64,000 nt of DNA from Nitrospirota bacterium. Its GTDB lineage: Bacteria > Nitrospirota > UBA9217. The position numbers were made by a program, and so were the translations under genes. Shown here piece after piece: positions 5,655-24,619 of the stretch. Each line of letters opens with the position of its first letter. The first letter of the stretch is position 1. The DNA is taken from assembly GCA_963796285.1 (NCBI GenBank), contig CAWCKW010000012.1, forward strand, positions 1,152,001 to 1,216,000. Direction: 5' to 3'. The notes under the pieces are model-generated. The model was not told the DNA's origin. It did no database searches and worked only from the letters and a program-made list of their open reading frames with translations.

Positions 5655-8600
5655 TTATCCCCGGGTGCGGAAAATAGCAAGTTTGCCGAACCTCTTCTGG
5701 AACGTATCAAGATACGTATAGACGACGGGCGTTATATACAGGGTCAACAGCTGCGAAAAGAGCAGACCGCCGACCACGGCAAGACCGAGAGGCCGCCGCG
5801 CCTCTGCGCCCGCGCCCAGGCCGAGCGCAATGGGGAGCGTGCCCATCAGGGCCGCCATCGAGGTCATCATGATCGGACGGAACCTGACAAGGGCCCCTTC
5901 GAAGATCGCTTCCTCGGGTTTTTTCCCTTCCTTCCGTTCCGCTTCAAGAGCGAAGTCGATCATCATGATGGCGTTCTTTTTCACGATCCCGATAAGCATG
6001 ATAACGCCCACATACCCGTAAATATTGAGCTCCATGCCGAAAGCCATGAGGGTCAGCAGCGCCCCCACGCCCGCGGCAGGCAGTCCCGAGAGGATCGTGA
6101 GCGGATGGATAAAGCTCTCGTACAGGACGCCGAGGACGATGTAGATGACCAGGACGGCCAGGATCAGGAGAAGGAACAGGCCCTGCGTGGACGACTGGTA
6201 CGCCTGGGCCGTGCCCTGGAAACTGGTCGTGATGGACTGCGGCAGCGTCTGCCGGGCGACCTTATCCACGTCCCCGACGGCTTCACTCAGGGAAACCCCC
6301 GGCCTCAGGTTAAAGGAAAGGGTCACCGCGGGGAGCTGACCGAGATGATTGATGAGGAGCGGACCCGTGCCCACGGTCGGCTTGGTAACGACATTGAGCG
6401 GTACTAATTTGCCGGACGAAGATCGGATATACAGCATGGTCAGCGAGGACGGGTCCGCCTGGTACCGGGGTTCCAGCTCCATGATGACCTGGTACTGGTT
6501 GGTCGGCGCCAGGATGGTTGAGATCTGCTGCGAGCTGTACGCCGCGCTGAGCGCGCTTTCGATCTGCTGCGCCGTGACGCCGAGCGCCGCTGCCTTGTCG
6601 CGGTCTATCTCGAGGTTCACCTGCGGGTTTTTTATCAGCAGATCGGTATTCACGTCCTGGAGCTGCGGCAACGCCCGAAGTTTCGCTTCGAGGATCGGGG
6701 CCGATTTATACAGCTCGTCCGTGTCCGGGCCCTGGAGCGTATACTGGTACTGGCTCTTCGTAAGCACGCCGCCGATGCGGATGGGAGGCAGGTTCTGCAT
6801 GAAGATCCTGATGCCGATGACGCCCGCGGTCTTTCTGCGCAACTGCTGGATGATCTGGTCGGCGGAAAGTTTACGCTCTGCACGGGGCTTCAACCTCATG
6901 AAGATCCGGCCGGAGTTGGCAGCCGCGTTCGGTCCGCCCGCGCCGATGCTCGACATGAAGGCCTCCACATTCTCGTCCTGGGCGATGATGTCCGCCAGTT
7001 CCAGTTGGTGTTTTCTCATGTCGGCAAAGGAGATCCCCTGCTGAGCCTCGGTAATGGCGAAGACCTGGCCCGTGTCCTCGGTCGGGAGAAAGCCTTTCGG
7101 TATGATATAGAAGAGCGCGAACGTCACGGGAAGAAGCAGAAGGGAGATCATCAGCGTGACAAAGCGGTGTTTGAGCACCCACGTGAGGCTCCTCTCATAG
7201 CTTTTCCGCAGGCGATCGAAGAATCGCTCCAGGACCATGTAGAACCGGCCGTGCCGCTCTTGTCCGGGAGGCCGCAGAAACCGGCTGCAGAGCATGGGGG
7301 TCAGCGTAAGGGACACCACGCCCGAAACAAGGATCGCCACGGTGATCACGACCGCGAATTCATGCAGCAGGCGTCCGAGGATGCCTCCCATGAAGAGCAC
7401 GGGGATGAAGACCGCGACCAGTGAGAACGTCATGGACAGGATCGTAAAACCGATCTCCTGCGACCCCTTGAGCGAGGCCTCAAGCACGGGTTCCCCGTGT
7501 TCCATGTGCCGGACGATGTTCTCGAGCATCACGATGGCGTCGTCGACCACGAACCCCACGGCAAGGATCATCGCCATGAGCGAAAGGTTGTCCACGCTGT
7601 AGCCGAGCACGTACATGGCCGAGAACGTACCGATGATCGACATGGGGAGCGCCAGGCTCGGGATGATCGTGGCCGAGAGGTTGCGTAAAAAAAGGAAGAT
7701 GACGAATACGACGAGCACGATCGCGAGCATCAGGGTCAACTTGACATCGCCGACGGATTCACGTATGGACGTGGATCGGTCGAAGAGAATATCCAGACTG
7801 ACCGATGCGGGAATCACCTCTCGGAACGTCGGCAACAGCTTCTTAATGGAATCCACGACCTCGACCGTGTTGGTGCCGGGCTGACGCTGAATGGCCAGGA
7901 TGACCGCCCTGGTCTTTGCTTTGGACGTATTGTACCAGCTTGCGACCTTATCGTTTTCCACGCTGTCGATGACCCTGCCGAGTTCCACGAGCCGGACGGG
8001 ATTGCCGTTGCGGTATGCCACAATGAGGGGGCGGTATGCCTCTGCATCCATGAGCTGGCCGCCCGTTTGTATGGTGAACGACTTCGTTGCCCCTTGCAGG
8101 GTCCCGGTCGGCAGGTTCACGTTCCCGTTCGCAACCGCGTTCGCCACTTCGTCGATGCCTATTCCGCGGGAGGCGAGGGCGTGGGGATCGAGCTGGGCGC
8201 GGACCGCGTACTTCTGGGAGCCGAATACCTGCACCTGGGCCACGCCGCTTATCATTGAAATGCGCTGGGCCATGGTGGTCTCGGCGTATTCGTCCACGGC
8301 TGCGAGCGGCAGTGTGGGAGAACTGAGCGCAAGATAGATGATCGGCTGGTCCGCGGGATTGACCTTCTGGTAGGTCGGGGGCGTCGGCATGTCCGGCGGG
8401 AGCAGGCGCGCGGCCTTGGCGATCATGGCCTGGACGTCCTGGGCCGCGGCATCGATGTTCCGGCTGAGGTTGAATTGGAGGTTGATCTGAGTAGAACCGA
8501 GCGCGCTCACCGACGTCATGTTATCGAGGCCGGCGATGGTGGAGAACTGGCGCTCGAGCGGCGTTGCCACGGCAGAGGCCATTGTCTCCGGGCTGGCGCC

Positions 8601-8756
8601 GGGCAGCGTGGCGTTCACGACGATGTTCGGGAAATCCACATTCGGCAGATCGCTCACGGGCAGCAGACGGTATGCCATGATGCCGAAGAGAAGGATCGCG
8701 CCCATGATCAGGGTCGTCATGACCGGTCTTCGTATAAAGGGTTCTGCGATGTTCAT
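5655..8756 (-). CDS. RND efflux permease, MdtB/MdtC (AcrB family)
   Basis: 1033 aa. FIRRPVMTTL, GFVVDDAIVMLENI, GIVKKNAIMMIDFA, RFRPIMMT. Confidence 0.96.
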   Translation of the reverse strand: MNIAEPFIRRPVMTTLIMGAILLFGIMAYRLLPVSDLPNVDFPNIVVNATLPGASPETMASAVATPLERQFSTIAGLDNMTSVSALGSTQINLQFNLSRNIDAAAQDVQAMIAKAARLLPPDMPTPPTYQKVNPADQPIIYLALSSPTLPLAAVDEYAETTMAQRISMISGVAQVQVFGSQKYAVRAQLDPHALASRGIGIDEVANAVANGNVNLPTGTLQGATKSFTIQTGGQLMDAEAYRPLIVAYRNGNPVRLVELGRVIDSVENDKVASWYNTSKAKTRAVILAIQRQPGTNTVEVVDSIKKLLPTFREVIPASVSLDILFDRSTSIRESVGDVKLTLMLAIVLVVFVIFLFLRNLSATIIPSLALPMSIIGTFSAMYVLGYSVDNLSLMAMILAVGFVVDDAIVMLENIVRHMEHGEPVLEASLKGSQEIGFTILSMTFSLVAVFIPVLFMGGILGRLLHEFAVVITVAILVSGVVSLTLTPMLCSRFLRPPGQERHGRFYMVLERFFDRLRKSYERSLTWVLKHRFVTLMISLLLLPVTFALFYIIPKGFLPTEDTGQVFAITEAQQGISFADMRKHQLELADIIAQDENVEAFMSSIGAGGPNAAANSGRIFMRLKPRAERKLSADQIIQQLRRKTAGVIGIRIFMQNLPPIRIGGVLTKSQYQYTLQGPDTDELYKSAPILEAKLRALPQLQDVNTDLLIKNPQVNLEIDRDKAAALGVTAQQIESALSAAYSSQQISTILAPTNQYQVIMELEPRYQADPSSLTMLYIRSSSGKLVPLNVVTKPTVGTGPLLINHLGQLPAVTLSFNLRPGVSLSEAVGDVDKVARQTLPQSITTSFQGTAQAYQSSTQGLFLLLILAVLVIYIVLGVLYESFIHPLTILSGLPAAGVGALLTLMAFGMELNIYGYVGVIMLIGIVKKNAIMMIDFALEAERKEGKKPEEAIFEGALVRFRPIMMTSMAALMGTLPIALGLGAGAEARRPLGLAVVGGLLFSQLLTLYITPVVYTYLDTFQKRFGKLAIFRTRG

Positions 8757-8769
8757 TCGGATAGTCCTT

Positions 8770-8898
8770 GATGATCCCGTAAAAAGTCGGTTATTACCGC
8801 AGAGACGCGGAGGGCGCGAAGAAAACTTATTGAATCATTTTTAATTTCTCTGCGTCTCAGCGCCTCTGCGGTGGATTCAGACTTCGTACAAATGCATC
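8770..8898. repeat. nested REP-like palindromic element
   Basis: Outer arms GATGATCCCGTAAAAAGTC / GACTTCGTACAAATGCATC enclose ACCGCAGAGACGCGGAG...CTCAGCGCCTCTGCGGT (8796-8872). Confidence 0.7.
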
Positions 8899-8969
8899 TT
8901 TCTTAAGTTTATAAATAAGAACGCGAGACGACGATCTTCGTAATTCAACAACAATGACACGGCTGTCGG

Positions 8970-10178
8970 TTACTTTTCATTGCCAGCTTTTTGTTTTTTA
9001 TCCGATTGGCCGGTGCTTGCCTGATCGCTTCCAGTCTGCCCGCTTTTTACCGGGGGTGTTTGCGGTTGCTCCTCTTTCAACTCCACACGGACCCCGGTGA
9101 TCAGGTTGAGCTGTCCGTCGGTCACGACTTTTTCTCCCGGCGTCACGCCTTGAGCGACCACGGCGATATCACCGGACGTCCGTGCGATTGTCACCGGCCG
9201 GGACTCGACCGTATTGTCCGGTTTTACCACAAAGACATACTGACCCTGCTGCCCTGCTTGAAGGGCCGCAGCCGGCATGACAACAGCGTTCCGTTGGGTC
9301 GTGAGCGTCAGGACCACATTGATGAACTGTCCCGGCCAGAGCCTTTTGTCCTTGTTCTCGAAGGTGCCTTTCAGCTGGATGGTCCCGGTGGCGGCGTCCA
9401 CGGCATTATTAATAAACGTAAGCTTTCCCTGAACGGGCCGTTTCTCGTCTCCGGGAATAACAGCATCCACCTGCAAGGATCCTTCAGCCATATATTTTTT
9501 AATATTCGCGAGGTTCTGTTCCGGCAAAGAGAAGGTCACATAGATCGGGACGATCTTATTGATCGTGACCATGGTCAGATCGTTCGCTTTAATGACATTG
9601 CCCTTGTTGATAAGGACGCTTCCGACGCGTCCGTCGATCGGAGATTTGATCGTGCAATAGGCAAGCTGCAGCCTGCCGTTCTCGACATTCGCTTTGTCCG
9701 CCTGGACCACGGCCGCCAGGGCGTCCGCAGCTGAGCGAAACTGGTCATATTGGTCCTTGGAGACATAGTCTTTCTGAACAAGGATCTCGTATCTCTTGGC
9801 CTGCTCTTCCGAATTCTTCGCCTGTGCAACATCGCGCGCGAGCTGCGCCTCGGCCTGCTTGAGGGCCGCCTCGTAGGGTCGAGGATCGATCTGGAAGAGC
9901 ACGTCGCCCTGCTGGACATCCTGACCTTCCTTGAATTGCACGCCGATGATCTCCCCGTTGACCAGGGCTTTCACGGATACGGCATTGTACGCCTCGACAT
10001 TGCCGATGGCATTGATCTGCACCGGGATGTTCTGTTGCATCACATCGCCTATTTTTACCGGTACGGCCGGCTTCGCCGCTTGTTTCGCCCTGCCGTCGTT
10101 GGAACAGGCGCTGATGATGAGAAAGAGCGCGACCGGAACGATCAGTTTCGCGCCCGCATGAACAGGTTTAAGCTTCAT
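8970..10178 (-). CDS. RND periplasmic adaptor, MdtA-like lipoprotein
   Basis: ISAC lipobox, FQIDPRPY, SPIDGRVG, LWPGQFINV. Confidence 0.93.
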   Translation of the reverse strand: MKLKPVHAGAKLIVPVALFLIISACSNDGRAKQAAKPAVPVKIGDVMQQNIPVQINAIGNVEAYNAVSVKALVNGEIIGVQFKEGQDVQQGDVLFQIDPRPYEAALKQAEAQLARDVAQAKNSEEQAKRYEILVQKDYVSKDQYDQFRSAADALAAVVQADKANVENGRLQLAYCTIKSPIDGRVGSVLINKGNVIKANDLTMVTINKIVPIYVTFSLPEQNLANIKKYMAEGSLQVDAVIPGDEKRPVQGKLTFINNAVDAATGTIQLKGTFENKDKRLWPGQFINVVLTLTTQRNAVVMPAAALQAGQQGQYVFVVKPDNTVESRPVTIARTSGDIAVVAQGVTPGEKVVTDGQLNLITGVRVELKEEQPQTPPVKSGQTGSDQASTGQSDKKQKAGNEK

Positions 10179-10285
10179 TATCTTTCGCTGCCTCTCTTTA
10201 TTGATTTACACATCCGGTTATGGAGCAATGCCAGGTACCCCTGGCGGTTAGAGCAACACATTGCCTTCTGCCTGACGTTACCCGG

Positions 10286-11665
10286 TTACCGCGCCCCCAT
10301 TGCTTTCTCGATGGTCGCCTGGTCGATCTTGTAATTGGACAAGGCGCTGGTATAGTTCGCCTGTGCGGCAACATAGGTGGCGAAGGCGTCCGAAACCTCG
10401 ATGGGGCTTCCCACTCCGGCGGAGTATCTGCCGTTTGCCAGGTCCAGGTTCTCCTTTGCCTGCGCGGATGCCAGTTCGGCGGTTGCAATGCTGGCCTCTG
10501 CCGCCTGCAGGTTCAGGTATGCCTGTTGAATATCGAGTTGTATCTGTTGTCTGAGTGACTCTTCGTTTGCCTTCAGTATATAAAAGCTTGACCTTGCCTC
10601 CGCCGCTTGATGAACGGTCAAAAATCCGCTGAACAGGGGTACGGTCAGGAGCACACCGGCATTCCAGCTGTGGTCTAAGTTCGATGTCGTCTCGCCTGCC
10701 CAGTTGTAGTTTGCGAACCCCGATAAGACCGGGTAATAGCCGGACCGTGCCAAACCGATATTTGCCTCCGCGGCCTGCCTTTTCGAGATGATCGACTTCA
10801 GGTCGGGCCTGTTCTCGAAGGCACGCGCCTTTGCCTCTTCCAGGGTTATCGCGAAGTGCTGGAATGAGAGGTTGTCCTCAATGGCATACTCAGGCGCATC
10901 CGGGGTCCCCATGATATTGTTAAGGGTCACCCAGGCCAAGTTAAGCGCGTTCTCGGCATTGATGAGGCTCAGTTTTGCATTACTCAGGTCCACTTCCGCT
11001 TTGATGACGTCGATCCTCGCCTTTGTTCCGACATCATAAAAACCTTTTGCCTGATCGAGGTGCAGTTGAAATTGTTTCAGGACGTCCGCGGCAACATCCC
11101 GGTCCCTCCTGGCCTTCAAGACGCCATAATAGGCCTGCTTTACGCTCAGGATGATAGTATCCTGCGTTGTGGTCAGATCTGAACGGGCAGACTCGAGGTT
11201 ATATTTCGAAATGTCGACCTGCTGAAAGGTCTTCCCGAAATCAAAAATGTTCTGGTTGAGGGTAATGCTGCTCGTATACTGGTCGTACGCCGCCGAGCTG
11301 CCGAAGGTGCTCGTCTGGGATGACAGGGGGTCTATTCTGGTATACGCTCCCGACGCACTGAGCTGCGGGTAGTAGTTTGAACGGGCTTCCCCTACCCTGC
11401 TCTGATTGACGTCAACGCCATATATCGATGCAAGGACGGTCGGATTTTTATTGAGCGCGGTCTCGATGCACTGGTTCAGGGTGAGGAGGGGGACCGGTTT
11501 TGCCGCTCCTGCCGCGGCTATTTCCTGTTCATTGGTCTGTCCCTGGACCGTTGCACCCTCACCGATCGGCTCCGCTTCGGCCGCTGACAGGCGCATGAGC
11601 GTCGTCAGCGACAACAATGACAGGATAGACAGCGCACTCACGATAGCTTTGCATTTTCTGTTCAT
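10286..11665 (-). CDS. TolC-family outer membrane channel
   Basis: Signal peptide and two OEP repeats (RSNYYPQLS, RSGYYPVLS, RYSAGVG). Confidence 0.92.
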   Translation of the reverse strand: MNRKCKAIVSALSILSLLSLTTLMRLSAAEAEPIGEGATVQGQTNEQEIAAAGAAKPVPLLTLNQCIETALNKNPTVLASIYGVDVNQSRVGEARSNYYPQLSASGAYTRIDPLSSQTSTFGSSAAYDQYTSSITLNQNIFDFGKTFQQVDISKYNLESARSDLTTTQDTIILSVKQAYYGVLKARRDRDVAADVLKQFQLHLDQAKGFYDVGTKARIDVIKAEVDLSNAKLSLINAENALNLAWVTLNNIMGTPDAPEYAIEDNLSFQHFAITLEEAKARAFENRPDLKSIISKRQAAEANIGLARSGYYPVLSGFANYNWAGETTSNLDHSWNAGVLLTVPLFSGFLTVHQAAEARSSFYILKANEESLRQQIQLDIQQAYLNLQAAEASIATAELASAQAKENLDLANGRYSAGVGSPIEVSDAFATYVAAQANYTSALSNYKIDQATIEKAMGAR

Positions 11666-11753
11666 AGTGATTCCCCCGGATTACTGGTTAGTGTCCTCTA
11701 TGGGACACAGGATTGCGGAATTGGTTCAATCCACTGGAAAGAAAAAAGATTCC

Positions 11754-12347
11754 CTACTCGTTTTTCATTGTGCCGAACATGAATATATCCACGAACTCTT
11801 TGATGTTCTTTTCCATTGTTTGTTTTTTCATACCGCCTGCCCGCATGATCTCCTCGGAGCGGAAGTAAGAGAACAGCATGCCCAAAAACATCTGGGCCGC
11901 CATCTCCGGAGATATGGTCCGGAGAAGGCCCTTTTTCTGCAGTCCCCTGAAGTAGGATGCGAGGGTCAAACGGAGATCATCGGCGAACTTGTTATAGAGT
12001 TTCTTGATCTTCTCAGGATAGATCGTTCCTTCCGAGTACATGATCTTGACCATTGACTTGCGTTCTTTCAGCGACAGCAAAAATCTGGATGCGATCTGCC
12101 TGAGCGAATCCCCATAGGAAAGACCGTCCAACTCCGGCAACAGTTCCTTCAGCCTCGGCAAAAAGGTGTGGTTCCTCAAAAGCGCTTCAAAAAGCTTTTC
12201 CTTGGTCCCGAAATGCCGGAACAGGGTCAACTCGGTGACCCCCGCTTCCTGGGCGATCTCCCGCGTCGTGGACCCGAGATAGCCTTTTTCCGAGATCAAT
12301 TTGAGCGTTGCGTCCAGCAGCCTCTGTTCTGTTGTGTTTTTCTTCAT
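11754..12347 (-). CDS. TetR/AcrR-family regulator
   Basis: [30 protein letters not shown]. First gene of the efflux operon. Confidence 0.95.
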
Positions 12348-12451: not shown

Positions 12452-12493
12452 ATGCCTGCTTTTAATAACTTGCAGGTAATGGAGGACTTTACA

Positions 12494-12688
12494 GTGGCGG
12501 GTACGTGTGATATTTGCGGAAAGGGCAAGCTCAGCGGAAACAAAGTGAGCCATGCCAATAACAGATCCAAGAAGTTTTCAAAGCCGAATTTGCAACCGAT
12601 CAGGGCAGAGGCGGCCAATGGTTCGCATGTGCGCATGCATGTCTGTACGCGGTGCATTCGATCGGGCAAAGTAAAGAAAGTAAGCTAG
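12494..12688 (+). CDS. rpmB: 50S ribosomal protein L28 (Zn-ribbon form)
   Basis: GGAGG SD then GTG start. CDICGK...GNKVSHANN...PNLQ...CTRCIRSGK. Confidence 0.95.
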
Positions 12689-12912: not shown

Positions 12913-12941
12913 TTGACACTAATCGAACCTGGGACTATATT
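12913..12941 (+). promoter_or_regulatory. near-consensus sigma70 promoter of the beta-propeller gene
   Basis: TTGACA-17-TATATT preceded by a very AT-rich UP-like region. Confidence 0.7.
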
Positions 12942-13148
12942 ATTATTCTTAGGAATAAAATGGTATTTGAATTTTAGTATTATTAAACAAGGCATCTCAC
13001 GTCAGACACTAGCTCCCGTACTCTTTTTTAAGGGACAAGGAGGTGAATACTCAGAGATTAGATGATAATTAAGGATGCGATAACAATAATCTGTATGTTT
13101 CACCTGAGCACCTAAGTGCTCGGAACTATTTAACATGGGAGGGATCAG

Positions 13149-14235
13149 ATGAAAAAGATTCTGGTGATCAGTTTGGTAGTGATGAGTGCTTTTGGGCTCT
13201 TCCTGGGCCTGTCACAGAGCGCAGTGGTGGAGGCAGCAGATGTTAGTGTTGTTACTGTGAAAGTAGTGCCGGCAGCCAAAATACCGACCTTTGACGCGAC
13301 GGCCTATATCGCCGGCCATGGCGGTCACATCGCGATCATCAATATGAAGACCATGAAGCCCCCGATGGACGTGGAAAAGGACCGGATCGTCCTTTCCGAG
13401 GCCGGTTCCGAGATGGAAGGCAAGATCGCGGGCATGAGCTTTGAAGAAGTGAAGAAGGCCGGCGGGACCCACGGCCAGTCCATCGTCACCGAAAAAGGCA
13501 AGAAGATCCTTGTTGCCGGAACACTGGCGGGAAACATATACAAGATAGACCTGGCAACAATGAAGAAGGAAGGCCCCTTCAAGGTCGGCGAGAAGTTCTG
13601 CGGCGCGATCGCAGGACCCGATGGAAACATATACTTCGAGGATATGGCGGACGGAAATGTCTATGTCTGGGATGCAAAGACGCTGAAAACCGTTGACAAG
13701 ATGCCGGTGGGCAAGGCGGTGTGCGGTATCCAGTGGACCAAGAACGGCAAGAAGGCCTATATTTCCGACATGCCGCAGGGTATCGTCTTTGTGTATGATT
13801 GGAAGACGAAAAAAGAGATCAAACAGATCACGAGCCCCGAGATGACATTCCTCCATCAGATCAGAATGACAGCCGGACGGCAAATACCTCTGGGTCAGCG
13901 CCCCGAACGAATTTGATCCGGGTCTCAAGCCGGGCACGCACAAGAGCCAGGTCATCATAATCGATACGAAAACTGACACGATCGTCAAGCGCCTCGTCCT
14001 TCCCGATGATGTGCGGCCGCATGATTTTGCATTTACCCCGGACGGCAAGTATGCGTTCCTTTCATCAAGGACCTATGGTGACGACAGCACGCTGAACGTC
14101 ATGGACATGAAGAACTACGATCTCGTTGGCAAAGTGTCCGCCTGCGCCGGCTGCCACAAGGCGAATGGCGTAGAAGTCAAGATCGACAAGGGTTCTCCGC
14201 TCCTCTGCGGCATCGAAGTCGACTGGCATAAGTAG
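13149..14235 (+). CDS. secreted YncE/YVTN-like beta-propeller protein with one CxxCH heme-c motif (frameshift near 13872)
   Basis: Signal peptide and repeats such as TPDGKY and WTKNGKKAY. Removing one base joins ORFs 13149..13916 and 14011..14235 (RMTPDGKYLWVSAPNE...). C-terminal CAGCH. Confidence 0.85.
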
Positions 14236-14266
14236 ACCGACCTGTAGTCCGTCAAGTTCGGTATCG

Positions 14267-14303
14267 GCCGGAGGCATGTTTCACCTGCCTCCGGCTTCTT
14301 CTT
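14267..14303 (+). terminator. intrinsic terminator
   Basis: GCCGGAGGCA-loop-TGCCTCCGGC followed by TTCTTCTTT. Confidence 0.8.
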
Positions 14304-14353
14304 TCCCTATTCCATAAAACCGCCGACGCATTTACAATCTGCTTGCATACTTG

Positions 14354-14409
14354 TTGTCTAATTAGGTTGTCTCTAATTAGTTTACTGCCTGCTCATCTTC
14401 TGGTATAAT
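14354..14409 (+). promoter_or_regulatory. promoter of the ABC/NosL operon with upstream repeated palindrome
   Basis: TTTACT-17-TATAAT with extended TG. CTAATTAG occurs twice (14358-14365, 14373-14380). Confidence 0.55.
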
Positions 14410-14459
14410 AAGTATGAATCGTTACTAAATCCACTATGAAGGAATAATCGTCTCTCGCT

Positions 14460-15659
14460 ATGAACATTCCTTATGTTGCTCTGAAAAATCTCAGAAGAAA
14501 ACTGACCCGGACGTGGCTTTTATTTTCCATTGTCGCGGTCGTATCCTGCACCCTCTTCTCGGCCACGCTCTTTCTGAAAAGCATCAATAATGCCCTGAGG
14601 ATCGGTACGTATCGCCTCGGCGCCGATATCCTGGTCGTTCCCGAGAGCGCGGAGGACAAGGCGAAATGCGCGCTGCTTTCCGGCGAGCCTACCCAATTCC
14701 TGATGGACAGGTCCGTTCTCGACCGGGTCAAGGCCATCGAAGGCATCAAGAGCGCAACACCCCAGCTTGTTCATCAAACCGACCAGCTTTACCTGCTGCT
14801 TCAATGTGGACGTGTTCCTCGTGGCCTTCGATCCCGACACCGATTTCACGGTCAAACCCTGGCTTGAAAAGAACCTCAACCGGAAGCTCGGCATCAATGA
14901 GATCATCACCGGCAGGAACGTCCCGGTGATCGTAGGAGACAAGATCCCCTTTTTCGGCACAACTTTCACGGTTGCAGGGACCATGGAAGCGACGGGGATG
15001 GATTTCTTCGACCGTGCCGTCTTCATGAGCCTCGACTGCAGCGTACAAGATGGCGGAAAATTCAAAAACCAAGGCGATCCAGCCCATAGAGATCGGCAGG
15101 GACCAGATATCCACCGTCCTCGTACAGGTAAAAGATGACATTACCCCGGACCGCGTCGCAATCCGGATCGAACATGACATCAGCGGTGTCAAGGCGCTGG
15201 TTTCGGACACCATCATCAGCACGGTGCGGAAACAGCTTTCCGGCCTTATCAAAGCGATCTTGATCATCAGCATCATCCTCTGGTTCATCGTCCTCCTGAT
15301 CATGGCGTTTGCCTTTTATATGATCGTGAACGAACGCCGCAGGGAGATCGGCATCTTGCGCGCTATGGGAGCGAACAGGGGGCATATAGCCGCCATTATA
15401 CTGAACGAAGCCACGTTCTGCTTTCGGCCACGGGCGGCGCGGTGGGGATCGTCCTCGGATACGTGTTGCTCATCAGTTTCAAGAACCTGATGCTCCACTA
15501 CCTCAAACTCCCCTATCTCTTCCCCGCCACGCCGGAGTTGATCCTGCTGACTGTCGGAGCGCTCATTGTTTCCATCGTCACCGGCCTCATTGCCGCGTTC
15601 CTGCCGTCATCGCGCTCCTGAAAGTGGAGCCCTACGAAGCGATCAGGAGCGCGGAATGA
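14460..15659 (+). CDS. MacB/FtsX-family ABC permease with periplasmic Cys-Cys motif (several frameshifts)
   Basis: ALKNLRRK, RLGADILVVP, SFTCCFN, VNERRREIGILRAMGA, EPYEAIRSAE across frames. Confidence 0.85.
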
Positions 15660-16255
15660 AGCCCATTATTTTCATCCTTTTCATGACGTCCTTTCTGTTC
15701 TTCTCCTGCACTAAAAACAAGGAGGAGGCGACTCCTCCTGTCGACACGGAAAAGAACCTTTTCGAGGAACTCAAGGACCAGACCGTCAAGAATCCCAAGG
15801 ATGCAGAGGCATGGTACCATCTCTCAGATCTCTATGAACGCTCAGAGGCATATACAGCGAAGAGGTGAATGCCCTTCAAAAGGTCATTGCCATCGACCCG
15901 CAGCGTGGATACGCCTACGTGAAACTGGGGAATGCGTACAGCAGGCTAGGACAATATCAGGAGGGCCTTACCAGTTACCGGAAGGCGATCAAGTTCTTTC
16001 CCAAGAATCCCGTGCTCTATAACAACATGGCGATTGCCTACGGCAAGCTCGGTAAAACAGACGAAGAGATACGTGACCCTTAAAAAAGCCATCGCCCTGC
16101 GGCCGCACTACTCAACCGCCAGGTACAATCTCGGCTTTGCGCTGCTCAAAAAGGGGAAACGTGCCCAAGCGCTCAACCAATACCATGAACTCGATAAATT
16201 TGACGCGGGGGTTGCAGCAGCCCTCAAAAAAGAGATCGACGAAACGGGAAAATAA
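15656..16255 (+). CDS. TPR-repeat lipoprotein (frameshifted)
   Basis: MKPIIFILFMTSFLFFSC lipobox. TPR motifs AEAWYHL, AYVKLGNAY, LYNNMAIAY, ARYNLGFAL. Confidence 0.85.
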
Positions 16256-16256
16256 G

Positions 16257-16668
16257 ATGATACGACGATTGCTGTTCACGGGAATAGCCCTGGCGCTCAT
16301 CCGTGATGTCCCTGACGCCTGCTCGTTGCAGAGGACATCAGATGTACTGAATGCGGTATGATGGTCCAGATGGATTCAAAATTCACTTCAAAGATCACCC
16401 AGGGAGAGACGACCCTCTATTTCTGCGATATCGGGGACCTGTTCACATATCTGAAGAAGACATAATATGAAAGAGGCCAGGGCCGCGGTCAAGGATTACA
16501 CGACCGGGGAATGGATCGATGCCCGCAAGGCGTACTTATGTCAATACAAAACGAAATTCAGGACACCCATGGGCATGGGGCATTGCCGCATTTAAGGACA
16601 AGAAGCGAGGCCTCGAAAGCCGGCAGCAATACTGGATTTCGACGCGAACGGCAAAGGCATTGAAATGA
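16257..16668 (+). CDS. nosL: NosL-family periplasmic copper chaperone (multiple frameshifts)
   Basis: Manual translation: signal peptide, CTECGM, YFCDIGDLF, VKDYTTGEWIDARKAY, TPMG, AAFKDK. Confidence 0.8.
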
Positions 16669-17074
16669 GGAAGCTTGATCGCGATCACGGCGCTCGCAGG
16701 CGGGATCCTTTTTTGCTGGTGCCTCAGGTACATTCTTCCTGCCTGCGAATATGTAGGGTTTCCCGCGCATGCACTGTTCTGATACGGCCCAGGCGGAATG
16801 GGTGGTCGGCACAGTGCTGATCGTGGTTTCCTGCATCGACCTTCTTCATGAAATCGGCAAAAGATGCCGCTGGCCGGTGCCATTCTATCATTCTCGTGTT
16901 CGGCTCGCTTACTGGCTTCCGGACAAATATCGGGTATTGCCAGAGCCCGCGGATGCCCTGTCATTACGGCATGGTGCCTGGGGTCAGGTTTATCGCCGTC
17001 CTCGGCATCCTGATCATGATCGGCGCGGTTTTCAGCATCGCAAAGGATCATACGGAAAGAAAGGAAAATCATGA
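16665..17074 (+). CDS. DUF4418-like Cys/Met/His membrane protein (frameshifted)
   Basis: ILPACEYVGFPRMHC and IGYCQSPRMPCH motifs between hydrophobic helices. ATG overlaps the nosL stop. Confidence 0.7.
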
Positions 17075-17772
17075 TCGAACTGAAAGGATTATCGAAAACC
17101 TACACAATATCCGGGAAAAGCATCAAGGCGGTCCAGCCGATGATCTTACGCATCCAGCAGGGAGAATTCGTCTCCATCGTCGGACACTCAGGAAGCGGCA
17201 AGAGCACCTTTCTGAGCCTTATCGGCGGCATTGCGCGGCCCGACACCGGCACGGTCACCATCGATGGAACGAATATCTGGAACATACAACGATCAGGAAC
17301 TGTTCAAAGCTCAGGAACGAGAAGTTCGGTTTCGTGTACCAGTTCGCGAGCCTTATCCCGACGCTGACCGCGATGGAGAATGTTCTCCTCCCTACGGTGT
17401 TCGGCGGAAAGAAGATCAACGGACGATGCGGTACGGCTGCTCAAGCTCGTGGGACTCGGCGAAAAAACCGACCGGTATCCGTCCGAGCTCTGCGGAGGCG
17501 AGCAGCAGCGCGTTGCGATCGCCCGCGCCTTCATCCATGACCCGGAGATCATTCTTGCGGACGAGCCCACGGGGGACCTAGACGAGGAGACGGAAGCGGA
17601 GATCATGGCGTTTTTCGAAAAGATCAATAAAGAGAAGAAGGTTACCATGATCATGGTGACCCACAGCTCCGAAATCGCGCTCCGCGCCGGCACGCGATAC
17701 CGCATGAAACAGGGCGTTCTTGATACAGCTGAATTGAAACCATCTCGATCATCCAATTCAATGAATGCGTAA
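17071..17772 (+). CDS. LolD/MacB-type ABC ATP-binding protein (frameshifted)
   Basis: GHSGSGKST, FGFVYQF, GGEQQRVAIARAF, ILADEPTGDLD. Confidence 0.9.
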
Positions 17773-17811
17773 CGAACAACGGCGGCCTTGCGGGCCGCCG
17801 TTGTTCGTTAC
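17769..17811. terminator. bidirectional hairpin between convergent operons
   Basis: 19-bp perfect stem GTAACGAACAACGGCGGCC / GGCCGCCGTTGTTCGTTAC. Confidence 0.8.
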
Positions 17812-17834
17812 CTGAACTCTATCGTCGTTGTCAG

Positions 17835-18542
17835 CTATTTCTTCTTCTTATCTCCGAACAGATAATCGTACTCCGCCGGATGATGGTGTTTGAGCTGCTC
17901 GGTCGTCATTTTCCCGGTGATCCACATCCAGTTCATCGGGAACACCTCGGAACGCAGGTGCTCATTGTAGAAATGGAAAATGAGGATGAACACGATGGCA
18001 AGAAGCGCCTCGTCACTGTGCATGGCGAAGACGACGTCCCAGATCCACCCGAGTGTAAATGTCGGGAACAAGTAAGACACCGTCACCGGGAATGCTAGGA
18101 AAAAACCGGATGCCCCGATGATGAACATGCCCCAATACACAGCCCAGTAGTCGAACTTCTGCATATAGCTGAATTTGCCGAAATAGGGTTTTTCCTTCCT
18201 GATGCCGAAGAAATACATGAAATTATGGAACGCATCCACCACGTCCTTGGGCATGGGAACGAGGGTAAGCCTGAACCCTCCCTTGCGCGCCTGGTTCACG
18301 AGGTAGAACTGGTGGTAGATGAAATCGAGCAGCATCGTGATGCCCGCCACCCGGTGAATGATCCCCGCCATCTTCGCGCCGCCCCAGAAACTGATCCAGG
18401 CGCTTGCCGGGTCCTGGTACGCGTACTTGAGCCCCCAACCGGTAAAGGACAGGAGCAAGAAGGTCGTGAACATGATGACGTGCTGGATCCTTGCCGAGAG
18501 GTCGAACCTCTCTATCTCCTTGGGTATATCCTGACTATTCAT
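17835..18542 (-). CDS. membrane di-heme cytochrome b (FdnI/CbcL C-terminal type)
   Basis: RIQH, IHRVAG, KFSYMQKFDYWAVYWG, HSDEALLA, FHFYNEH, HHPAEY. Start MNSQD overlaps the upstream gene. Confidence 0.88.
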   Translation of the reverse strand: MNSQDIPKEIERFDLSARIQHVIMFTTFLLLSFTGWGLKYAYQDPASAWISFWGGAKMAGIIHRVAGITMLLDFIYHQFYLVNQARKGGFRLTLVPMPKDVVDAFHNFMYFFGIRKEKPYFGKFSYMQKFDYWAVYWGMFIIGASGFFLAFPVTVSYLFPTFTLGWIWDVVFAMHSDEALLAIVFILIFHFYNEHLRSEVFPMNWMWITGKMTTEQLKHHHPAEYDYLFGDKKKK

Positions 18543-19437
18543 GCTTGCCTCCCTTCCTGAACAAACGCTCACGGATGTCCGCGAAAATGTCCAAAAGCAC
18601 ATGGATACAAATGAACGCAAACACGCTCATGGTGAGAACGATCAATGCAAGCTCGGTAAAATGCGCGATGGGATGAAGCGGCTGGTGGGTAATCGCAGCA
18701 ACGAATTTTTCCGTGGCGCCCGCATGACATTTCCCACAAGTCTTTATCTTATTCGCACCAAAGACCGGTGACGATGGGTCTTTGACATCTTTAATATCGT
18801 GAGAACCATGGCAATTGACGCATGACGGAGCACCGGCATGGCCGACTTTCAGCTTTCTGCCATGGAAGCTTTCTTTGTAGCGCTCCATGACGTGGGGAGT
18901 CAGTCCATATTTCTCGGACATCATCTTCTCTTCGTGACAGGTGCCGCAGGTCTGTACCACATTGAAGTGATTCACTGCCGATTCTTTGCTCGTCTTCGGC
19001 TGGATGTAGTGCGGCGATCCATGGCAGCTGGTACAGACCGGGCCATCACTCGATTTTTTGATGATCACATTCCGCCCATGTACGCTCTCTTTATAGGCGG
19101 CATAGATGTCCGGATGACAGGTCACGCAGGCCGCCTGTGCGATCGGCTCTTTCAGGCCCTTCGGCGAGAGCGCGGCTGCAAGCGCCTGAACAGCACTGTC
19201 CGGCTTTCCTCCCGCCAACCCCTGATGTTGCGAACCCTTCAGGGTCAGGTGGCACATGAGGCAATCATTCATCCCGCCGTGAACAGACTTAGAGAATTTT
19301 TCCTGGTCCACATTGACGGCCCCCTCCATCGAGCCGTGACAACCCAGACATGTTGCCGCATCCGTAGCTGCGCCGGCTGCCGGTGTCAATCCAAAGGTGA
19401 ACAACAACATCAGTAATGCACTCAGCCAATTCCCCAT
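18535..19437 (-). CDS. heptaheme periplasmic cytochrome c with C-terminal membrane anchor
   Basis: Seven CxxCH (CLGCH, CLMCH, CVTCH, CTSCH, CGTCH, CVNCH, CGKCH), SVHG/SFHG repeats, signal peptide, C-terminal TM helix with His. Confidence 0.92.
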   Translation of the reverse strand: MGNWLSALLMLLFTFGLTPAAGAATDAATCLGCHGSMEGAVNVDQEKFSKSVHGGMNDCLMCHLTLKGSQHQGLAGGKPDSAVQALAAALSPKGLKEPIAQAACVTCHPDIYAAYKESVHGRNVIIKKSSDGPVCTSCHGSPHYIQPKTSKESAVNHFNVVQTCGTCHEEKMMSEKYGLTPHVMERYKESFHGRKLKVGHAGAPSCVNCHGSHDIKDVKDPSSPVFGANKIKTCGKCHAGATEKFVAAITHQPLHPIAHFTELALIVLTMSVFAFICIHVLLDIFADIRERLFRKGGKHE

Positions 19438-19606
19438 ACCTTCTCCTTTCATCTAGTTGAAATAGTATATAAATCCGGTCATTATTCTGCAGGTACCATG
19501 CCAAAACTAACCTGTTGTTTTTATAATGCTTCAGGTGCAATAAGTTTTCGCAATAATGAGAACTCAGCAAGTATTATTTCACATTTGCGAACAACGTGGC
19601 TATCGA

Positions 19607-23294: not shown

Positions 23295-23496
23295 TACGAG
23301 TTGCGATTATCTCACAAAAATTGCGTGATTTCAAGGCATTGTTATTCGCTGTACAGAATTTCCTCAGGCGCAACTATTTCATTCAATGGACCGGTTCTCC
23401 AATCTGAACGACAGTATGCGCTTTGTCTTTGATTGTTCATTTTCTCTGTGGTATAATCGGCTCGATTTTAGACCAGCAATGAAACCGGAGACGCGC

Positions 23497-24619
23497 ATGC
23501 TATTAGAAGATCTGAAACTGGAACTCAACGCAGTCAAGAACAGGATAGAGACCCTGCGGAGGCATCTTTGACACCCCTGCCAAGGAAGCACAGCTGACCG
23601 AGCTCACCCACCTGATGGAAGCCTCTGGTTTCTGGGACAATAAGGACAAAGCGAACGCGCTCATGAAGGAAAAAGCCGCGCTTGAGCGTTCTCTCAAGGA
23701 CTGGAACTCGCTCTCGACGCGTTTTCATGACCTTGAGGCCATGGCGGAGCTTGCTGCAGAAGAAGGCGGTGAGGCCATGCGTGCTGAGATGGAGAGCGAG
23801 ATCGCAACCATCCAGAAGGACATCTCGGCAGCAGAGATCGCGGCGCTCCTCTCGGGAGAACAGGACATCACCAATGCCATCGTCTCGATCCACCCCGGCG
23901 CGGGCGGAACCGAGGCCCAGGATTGGGCCGAGATGCTGATGCGAATGTATCTGCGATGGGCAGAGGCGAATGGCTACAAGACCGAGATCCTCGACTATCA
24001 GAACGGTGAAGAAGCAGGCGTCAAGTCAGTGACCTTCACGGTCTCGGGCGACTACGCCTACGGCAAGCTGAAGGCCGAGGCAGGCGTGCACCGCCTGGTG
24101 CGCATCTCGCCCTTTGACGCGAACAAGCGCAGGCATACGTCTTTTGCCTCGGTCTACGTGTATCCTGAAGTTGAAGAAAATATCGACCTTGCGATCGATG
24201 AAAAGGACCTGCGCATCGACACCTATCGCGCATCAAGCGCCGGCGGCCAGCATGTGAACAAGACCGACTCGGCCGTGCGCATCACGCACCTGCCGACGAA
24301 CATCGTTGTACAATGTCAGAACGAGCGATCGCAGCTCAAGAACAAGAACGCGGCCATGAAGGTGCTGCGTTCGCGGCTGTATGAGGTCAGGAAGAAGGAA
24401 CATGACGAGAAGCTCGGCAAGCTGGTAAGCGAGAAGAAGGACATCGCCTGGGGAAGCCAGATCCGGTCCTATGTGTTCCAACCCTACCAGTTGGTGAAGG
24501 ACCACCGGACCGGCGTGGAATCAGGCAACGTGAACGCTGTGATGAATGGAGACCTCAACCAGTTCATTGACGCCTATCTGGTGGCGGGTAGCGGGCCAGC
24601 GATAACGGATAAATCGTAA
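23497..24619 (+). CDS. prfB: peptide chain release factor 2 (programmed +1 frameshift)
   Basis: 24-codon first ORF ends GGAGG-CAT-CTT-TGA-C (23558-23572). The +1 frame contains the SPF and GGQ motifs. Confidence 0.97.

Follow-up and report, generated by a model that had tools for sequence, protein, structure and literature searches.

A haem-motif beta-propeller and its MacB-type ABC genes in Nitrospirota: a candidate metallo-propeller system

A 64,000-nucleotide stretch of a Nitrospirota genome (GenBank assembly GCA_963796285.1, contig CAWCKW010000012.1, positions 1,152,001 to 1,216,000), hereafter the window, encodes a periplasmic beta-propeller protein together with an ATP-binding cassette (ABC) machine of the FtsX/MacB type. 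Six-frame reading and Pfam scans identify eight gene families between window positions 13149 and 19452, all in the place and order described in an initial annotation of this DNA. They specify a secreted propeller with a haem-binding motif, an operon for a permease, an ATPase and three accessory proteins, and a convergent pair of cytochromes. The propeller and ABC genes form a conserved unit in related genomes. With moderate confidence, these genes are proposed to represent a self-contained periplasmic module in which the dedicated ABC machine services the haem propeller, most likely by inserting a metal (probably copper) or a cofactor. A metal is suggested because of the conserved histidine and cysteine residues of the propeller and the nature of the neighboring genes.

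Conservation of the propeller and its ABC genes

The propeller gene (13149..14235, + strand) encodes a six-bladed, Sec-exported protein of approximately 361 residues with a C-terminal CAGCH motif. It is followed on the same strand by genes for an FtsX/MacB-type permease of approximately 398 residues with a periplasmic Cys-Cys pair in the sequence FTCCFN (14460..15659), a tetratricopeptide repeat (TPR) lipoprotein with a signal peptide ending in ...LFFSC (15656..16255), a NosL-family protein with a CxxCGM motif (16257..16668), a DUF4418 membrane protein with four conserved cysteines (PxC, MxC, GYC and MPC; 16665..17074) and an ABC ATPase of the LolD/FtsE/MacB type, approximately 220 residues long in relatives (17071..17772). 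The start and stop codons overlap as ATGA at the permease/TPR, NosL/DUF4418 and DUF4418/ATPase junctions.

Species-representative genomes were scanned for this arrangement using a search from seven closely related sequence rows, limited to relatives that keep two peptide patterns. The 80 loci retrieved stem almost entirely from metagenome-assembled genomes (MAGs) of Nitrospirota, with a few labeled Desulfobulbia, Deltaproteobacteria or Chloroflexota. Among the 65 loci with at least 4.5 kb of downstream sequence, the permease, TPR and ATPase genes are each found behind the propeller gene in 61. The four exceptions are propeller copies without ABC genes: two (L075 and L077) are additional to a full operon in the same MAG, and for the remaining two (L083 and L104) the contig that bears the other propeller copy of the MAG is too short for an assessment. 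Three single-contig genomes (G036, G123 and G256) are among the carriers of the unit. At 16 more distant loci, where the propeller shares 27-61% identity, the permease gene is adjacent in 15 and the ATPase gene in 13 (12 directly behind the permease), while TPR and NosL genes are each present in two. These counts indicate that the core unit consists of the propeller, the Cys-Cys permease and the ATPase, with the TPR protein specific to the subfamily of the window. The initial annotation treated the propeller and ABC genes as one functional system, and the counts at both related and distant loci bear out a conserved unit. Of the genes whose co-occurrence with the propeller it proposed as a test, the permease does co-occur, NosL and DUF4418 are optional and the cytochromes are usually absent, as detailed below.

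Within Nitrospirota, the propeller is detected (E <= 1e-30) in 76 of 401 genomes sampled, including 32 of 63 in the family of the window. Three other families of the phylum lack it in all genomes sampled (0/76, 0/40 and 0/28), as does one 100%-complete genome of the same genus. The module is common to many sulfate-reducer-type Nitrospirota. Apart from the operon itself, seven diverse loci have nothing in common in their flanks, and the neighbors of the four ABC-less propeller copies, and those of locus L131, provide no functional hint.

The permease ortholog matches both FtsX (73.5 bits, cut-off 25.5) and the MacB periplasmic core domain (MacB_PCD; 32.8 bits, cut-off 27), as is characteristic of type VII ABC systems; the pieces of the window permease match these families in fragments only. 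Its Cys-Cys pair (C112-C113), to which the initial annotation had drawn attention, does not vary among 36 permeases, and in a set of 66 its conservation is at least 97%. The larger set includes the two paralogues in the same genome, one beside the gene for thiocyanate dehydrogenase (TcDH) and one beside a further propeller gene on contig 2. The TcDH-adjacent paralogue shares 31-36% identity with the window permease. The ATPase ortholog matches ABC_tran with 117.8 bits and LolD with 230 bits, the latter under the LolD cut-off, and is closest to LolD, FtsE and MacB. TPR families match the lipoprotein with E values down to 6e-16 in the window and, for the ortholog, 1e-27.

NosL and DUF4418 are optional parts of the system. 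The orthologs of both proteins match their families (NosL, PF05573, 33 bits with a cut-off of 24; DUF4418, PF14387, 66.4 bits with a cut-off of 27), and the window pieces (17.1 bits and 19-24 bits, respectively) fall under these cut-offs because of frameshifts. The NosL proteins encoded in the operon retain the CxxCGM, FCDxGD and TPMxW motifs. Unlike canonical lipoprotein NosL, the N-terminus of the ortholog, inspected by eye, reads ...SSPVPAAD before CAECGM and contains no lipobox. The four DUF4418 cysteines are at least 80% conserved in 22 sequences. NosL is encoded within 9 kb at 28 and DUF4418 at 21 of the 80 loci (hidden Markov model built in this analysis). NosL takes at least three gene orders beside the unit (e.g. 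L067 and L109) and lies outside the operon at five loci, either upstream on the other strand or downstream. At L109, a gene for an FtrD-like, cysteine-rich membrane protein (PF10080; L109:11283-11726) occupies the NosL/DUF4418 slot between the permease and TPR genes, and NosL and a second MacB-type permease (L109:13417-15603) are encoded downstream.

The haem motif and candidate metal site of the propeller

The closest intact ortholog of the window propeller, from locus L003, is 93-95% identical to the two pieces of the window protein. Searches with this ortholog gave 962 homologs (E <= 0.001), of which the best 120 are at least 76% identical and 334-408 residues long; where named, these 120 are annotated as 'YncE family' or 'exported hypothetical protein' and originate from Nitrospirota. 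Among representatives of 50%-identity clusters, 27 proteins reach E 1e-30 and the remainder are generic YVTN repeat proteins. An alignment of 36 propellers contains the invariant residues H57, H60, E88, M89, H108, C151, C192, M208, H236, H291 and D292, followed in the C-terminal part by R307, C332, C335, H336, C353 and W359. C192, H236, D292, R307 and the CxxCH motif are invariant in relatives down to 28% identity.

Several features are those of c-type cytochromes: the motif residues C332, C335 and H336 are invariant, the signal peptide is of the Sec type, and the genome contains Cytochrom_C_asm genes. The propeller is thereby predicted to bind haem c covalently at CxxCH. As judged by eye, the N-terminus (MKKILVISLVVMSAFGLFLGLSQSAVVEAAD) contains no twin arginine, and hence no twin-arginine translocation (Tat) signal.

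An AlphaFold2 model of the propeller (pLDDT 90.1, pTM 0.86) shows six four-stranded blades, with a C-terminal strand that closes the ring together with N-terminal strands and a short helix that bears CxxCH; the protein ends 25 residues beyond this motif. Exhaustive structural comparison with VIA-align places six-bladed YWTD, NHL and lactonase propellers on top (Z 25-21), and the leading Foldseek matches are YVTN, hydrazine synthase beta and WD40 propellers. Both searches returned generic propellers only, with no special likeness to NosZ or TcDH, and a search of the ESM Atlas recovered only the propeller's own clusters and generic 'YncE/lactonase' clusters. Since the fold is that of a generic propeller, it is uninformative on function.

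The positions of the conserved residues are more suggestive. According to DSSP, the conserved histidines and cysteines all fall at, or immediately ahead of, the first strand of a blade, taken here to be the innermost strand, and the copper ligands of NosZ and TcDH sit in this innermost-strand register. In an hhalign comparison with the TcDH homolog encoded by this genome (92.8% probability, 134 columns), H291 is paired with a histidine. H57/H60, H108, C151, C192, H236, H291-D292 and C353 may therefore face the central channel and coordinate a metal centre, with copper as the most likely metal.

A mechanism for the proposed module can be sketched, in which all steps after export are inferred. 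The propeller would be exported unfolded by Sec, receive haem c at CxxCH and fold. The MacB-type ABC machine would then use ATP-driven movements of its periplasmic domains to deliver metal to the His/Cys site of the propeller, with the Cys-Cys pair of the permease holding the metal in transit. Cu(I) would come from NosL, with DUF4418 as a membrane relay; the two would form a copper(I) delivery route that is optional. As a possible adaptor, the TPR lipoprotein would keep hold of the propeller. Complex prediction for the permease periplasmic domain (residues 41-260) and the mature propeller (residues 30-361), with both partners supplied as 36-row alignments, scored 0.00 and 0.02 (mark 0.32) and speaks neither for nor against an interaction.

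A more specific form of this proposal is tentative and rather unlikely. It envisages an undescribed periplasmic haem-copper (perhaps copper-sulfur) enzyme, in which the propeller haem would be the entry point for electrons, as CuA is in NosZ, a ring of three to four histidines and three cysteines would hold a catalytic cluster, the MacB-type ABC machine would assemble this cluster, and the Cys-Cys pair would relay Cu(I) from NosL and DUF4418. The substrate might be a small nitrogen or sulfur compound of anoxic sediments. If this is correct, assembly of a haem-copper propeller would represent a second, independent solution to the task performed by NosDFYL, and the same type of ABC machine would mature TcDH.

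Several observations weigh against a metal-loading role. The assignment of a His/Cys ring derives solely from sequence register and DSSP, and the conserved cysteines could form disulfides while the conserved histidines could be haem ligands. NosZ is one structural match among many (Z 19.3, rank 45), and cofactor-less YVTN surface-layer and hydrazine-synthase-beta propellers outscore TcDH in sequence match. NosL is missing from 52 of the 80 loci, and the same-genus relatives L004 and L005 have the operon without NosL or DUF4418.

These observations bear on an alternative that is possible, if considerably less probable, in which the propeller has no extra metal centre and is a mono-haem or cofactor-free partner of a MacB-type mechanotransducer to which NosL is loosely linked. 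The ABC machine would then perform envelope work, or export or extract a small molecule, in the manner of LolCDE, FtsEX-EnvC or the operons of pyrroloquinoline quinone (PQQ) catabolism that combine a YVTN propeller with ABC genes. The ATPase and permease are indeed most like LolD/LolCE, FtsEX and MacB, though under the respective cut-offs, and the best NCBIfam match of the propeller is the PQQ-associated family TIGR03866 (50 bits, cut-off 287). The best sequence relatives among solved structures are likewise cofactor-less YVTN propellers, and the frequent absence of NosL fits this explanation. However, a scaffold would not need the CxxCH motif and six blade-start His/Cys residues that are invariant in 36 propellers, nor C192, H236 and CxxCH in relatives as distant as 28% identity. 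The Cys-Cys pair is shared with the ABC permease beside TcDH, a known copper enzyme, NosL recurs in different gene orders, and the operon encodes neither a membrane-fusion protein nor a lipoprotein-sorting partner. An ABC-assisted metallo-propeller thus remains the favored interpretation, at roughly an even chance. If it holds, a widespread and strongly conserved protein of anaerobic sulfur-cycling Nitrospirota, now labeled 'YncE family' or 'hypothetical', would be a new metalloenzyme, and MacB-type ABC machines would acquire a new job, the insertion of cofactors into periplasmic propellers.

The cytochrome pair, the frameshifts and the surrounding genes

Convergent to the operon lie two intact, overlapping genes on the - strand, which encode a cytochrome b of the Ni_hydr_CYTB/FdnI type (17835..18620; PF01292, 38.4 bits; conserved part from an ATG at ~18542) and a seven-haem cytochrome c with a C-terminal membrane helix (18535..19452; seven CxxCH motifs in translation, with matches to multihaem families). 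Both agree with the initial annotation, which likened them to CbcL of Geobacter. The b-type membrane part and the multihaem c part are present here as two overlapping genes, whereas CbcL combines both in one polypeptide and carries more haems. A 20-bp hairpin (17769..17811; -38.5 kcal/mol, z -7.3) separates the convergent units and is likely a two-way terminator.

The initial annotation went further and joined propeller, loading machine and cytochrome pair into one respiratory system, in which the pair would connect the propeller to the quinol pool by electron transfer. This is improbable. At all 14 loci of the window's clade, among them relatives at 71-89% DNA identity, the pair directly follows the operon, and a propeller haem would be a suitable acceptor of electrons from a periplasmic multihaem protein. 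However, these 14 are all that were found among the 57 loci whose downstream flank reaches at least 7.5 kb, and each has a permease at least 78% identical to the reference; the other 43 have no pair within 7.5 kb, and the flanks in other clades are unrelated genes. The pair is also convergent and behind a strong hairpin, has further paralogues in the same genome, and could have kept its position within one clade by plain inheritance. Because the pair is confined to the clade of the window, the quinol link is unsupported, and the cytochromes are a neighboring respiratory module of this clade rather than a demonstrated part of the system.

An independent promoter and terminator had also been assigned to the propeller gene. 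The terminator is supported by a terminator-like hairpin with a U-rich tail directly 3' of the gene (14266..14296, + strand; -29.3 kcal/mol, z -4.8), which a simple hairpin scan missed, probably because of its long loop. The promoter is a consensus match only (12913..12941, + strand; TTGACA-17-TATATT, 11 of 12 hexamer positions), as is a second promoter-like site upstream of the ABC operon (14381..14409, + strand; TTTACT-17-TATAAT with TG before the second hexamer, 10 of 12 positions). Promoter hexamers gave 10 matches compared to 6.3 +/- 2.9 expected. Metatranscriptome contigs (run X12) align to window positions 13100-14235 and 18130-19388, covering propeller and cytochrome genes with 0-23 differing letters per piece; within the ABC operon, such contigs are confined to the region of the conserved ATPase motifs. 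The contigs on the propeller and cytochrome genes are a hint of expression and no proof of transcription.

None of the six + strand genes keeps an open frame in the window. The propeller gene contains one inserted base at ~13871, a break that the initial annotation had recognized while missing those in the other five genes. The permease gene has indels at ~14767, 15037, 15416 and 15608, the TPR gene has two, the NosL gene approximately six inserted bases, the DUF4418 gene approximately seven indels and the ATPase gene approximately five, the last of which extends the open frame. Compared to three relatives, the window contains 22 insertion events, 20 of one base and two of two bases, and three one-base deletions between 13871 and 17726; no insertion falls in a homopolymer. 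The intact genes of relatives L004, L005, L006 and L008 encode, in order from propeller to ATPase, 361-377, 398, ~199, 137-140, 134 and 220 residues.

These frameshifts are most likely assembly errors and not decay, and the operon is therefore probably intact in the organism. Genome-wide, 53 of 191 conserved open reading frames (ORFs; 28%) are split over at least two reading frames, in up to six pieces per gene. The ORFs counted are at least 200 residues long, were taken from 400 kb of another genome in the genus and each have an ortholog-like match in this genome; some are antisense shadows. Split genes are clustered in patches, e.g. C12:276-322 kb. Cytochrome c maturation genes are frame-split as well, at two of three loci. 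Among 462 codons for which two outgroups agree, 17 synonymous and four non-synonymous substitutions, and no stop, fall on the window lineage, compared to 26 and eight on the sister lineage. At the four covered sites among those listed (~13871, 14767, 15037 and 16929), the extra letter is absent from other public-run contigs; this support is weak because most of these contigs stem from relatives rather than the source strain. No public run contained more than 0.20 of the sampled words, and the contigs are short and mostly 90-95% alike. A genome-wide scan of ORF coverage failed to single out error patches, which antisense ORFs mask. Counting against assembly error is the density in the ABC genes, approximately 7 per kb, which is far above the rough genome average and ends near the operon borders.

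That the operon is instead a real, decaying pseudogene cluster is very improbable. All six genes are broken while flanking genes (those of the cytochromes, truA, the TetR regulator and the RND pump) are open, and the patchy distribution of the operon in the phylum, described above, would be compatible with loss. However, more than a quarter of conserved ORFs are frame-split across the genome, those for cytochrome c maturation included. The 25 indels stand beside only 21 lineage-specific substitutions that are mostly silent, and the pattern is therefore unlike pseudogene ageing. Insertions outnumber deletions 22 to 3, nearly all of single bases, whereas natural gene decay tends towards deletions. 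With approximately a quarter of its conserved genes frame-broken, this assembly calls for care with gene calls and for frameshift-aware handling.

Other genes in the window were identified by eye. An ORF resembling ribosomal protein L28 lies upstream of the locus (12476-12688, + strand, from its translation), preceded by an intact efflux operon on the other strand (5655-12347, -) that encodes a TetR-like regulator, an outer-membrane factor, a membrane-fusion protein and a 1033-residue RND pump. Downstream, prfB (23386-24619, +) consists of a short ORF ending in ...LRRHL and, in a different frame, the main ORF, which carries the GGQ motif; the frame break is the expected programmed +1 frameshift site.

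Relation to NosZ, thiocyanate dehydrogenase and other propeller and ABC systems

The genome, which is 96% complete, contains no match over cut-off to the NosZ families of clades I, II or III. The initial annotation had reported no nosZ in the window, and by these models none reaches a cut-off elsewhere in the genome. The best genomic match to TIGR04246 reaches 48 bits (cut-off 625) and lies away from the propeller, and that to NF052460 reaches 32.8 bits. PF18764 (nos_propeller) had no match in the genome, though its control matched nowhere either. The window also lacks nosD, as originally noted: the sole NosD-family match in the genome, with 34 bits, lies on contig 3 (G000:C3:310060-310422, in the L113 area) inside a 609-residue open frame.

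The window propeller itself belongs to none of the copper propeller families considered. The NosZ models TIGR04246 and PF18764 are not among its matches at E <= 0.001, and with six blades and no cupredoxin family match it is not a NosZ of clade I or II. L-NosZ (NF052460), the lactonase-type N2O reductase of clade III, is rejected at 47.8 bits against a cut-off of 700, with a match limited to model positions 88-228 of 480; control genomes such as that of E. coli give equally weak matches. TcDH is rejected since the family profile matches PDB 8q9x with only E 1.8e-6 and 30 bits over 75 residues, and the propeller has no Tat signal. PF02239 (haem d1 domain) matches the intact ortholog with 39.4 bits (cut-off 25.5) at profile positions 229-362 of 368 only, and the window pieces with 19-23 bits; the PF02239 domain is eight-bladed, whereas the propeller model has six blades.

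The genome does, however, encode a TcDH homolog with a Tat signal (G000:C12:925533-927071; E 4e-175 to PDB 8q9x). The surrounding locus (L114, G000:C12:918001-936000) contains the paralogous Cys-Cys permease, two more FtsX permeases, two ATPases, NosL and thioredoxin-like genes, and two further genes that by eye resemble those for CopC and CopD. A third paralogous pair is found on contig 2 (L115, G000:C2:448-3579), where a Big_2-domain lipoprotein-propeller ending in CSGCH, split over three overlapping frames, precedes an intact Cys-Cys permease, directly after which the contig ends. That the NosL and ABC genes of the window serve an enzyme elsewhere, either this true TcDH homolog or a NosZ, is scarcely credible, given that genes for FtsX permeases, ATPases, NosL and CopC/CopD already lie next to that of TcDH, no NosZ family is over cut-off in the genome, and the window ABC genes travel with the propeller and not with TcDH.

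Literature searches found no paper on a system of propeller and Cys-Cys permease, with the L-NosZ study covered via citing papers only; related clusters might be present in the supplements of that study. Searches on DUF4418 returned nothing relevant, and no paper was found that combines TcDH with NosL.

The published description of the Thioalkalivibrio TcDH cluster lists TcDH, four ABC subunits, hypothetical genes and copCD, and its authors suggest a role in copper acquisition or supply for the ABC and copCD genes (PMC5328954). The TcDH locus of the present genome matches that cluster in content. Like TcDH clusters, the window locus has a propeller gene followed by ABC permease and ATPase genes with copper genes nearby. 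If the proposed function is correct, the ABC genes beside TcDH would gain a testable function. The proteins themselves differ: TcDH is a Tat-exported protein of approximately 500 residues whose seven-bladed propeller houses a tricopper centre and lacks a haem motif (PMC9456337), whereas the window propeller is Sec-exported, six-bladed and 361 residues long, with CxxCH.

L-NosZ resembles the window propeller in being a divergent propeller family of Nitrospirota and Desulfobacterota. It also occurs without canonical nos accessory genes and with transporter and cytochrome genes nearby (PMC13477213). It differs in its cupredoxin part, which the window propeller lacks.

The TIGR03866/YncE family likewise combines a YVTN-type propeller gene with an operon for ABC transport. 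Its propellers, however, are seven-bladed, lack both CxxCH and a conserved His/Cys ring, and pair with another ABC type.

The closest relatives of the ABC machine are MacB, LolCDE and FtsEX, with which it shares an FtsX domain, a MacB periplasmic core in the permease and an LolD/FtsE-like ATPase. MacB, LolCDE and FtsEX act in the periplasm and do not transport a substrate across the inner membrane. The window system is distinguished from them by its invariant periplasmic Cys-Cys pair and its fixed haem-motif propeller partner, and Pfam scans of the operon found no membrane-fusion protein, LolA/LolB or EnvC partner.

A functional parallel may be NosZ with NosDFY and NosL, which likewise combine a periplasmic propeller client, an ABC ATPase and permease acting from the periplasmic side, a NosL encoded in the operon and a copper-loading logic. 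The components are nevertheless distinct. NosFY is of the ABC-2 type, whereas the window ABC is of the FtsX/MacB type; NosZ is seven-bladed with a C-terminal CuA cupredoxin domain, whereas the window propeller has six blades and a haem motif and lacks this domain; and NosL is optional at window-type loci, where the ortholog has a Sec-type signal without a lipobox. The role proposed for the ABC machine of the window would thus parallel that of NosDFY with NosZ and that of the paralogous ABC genes beside TcDH.

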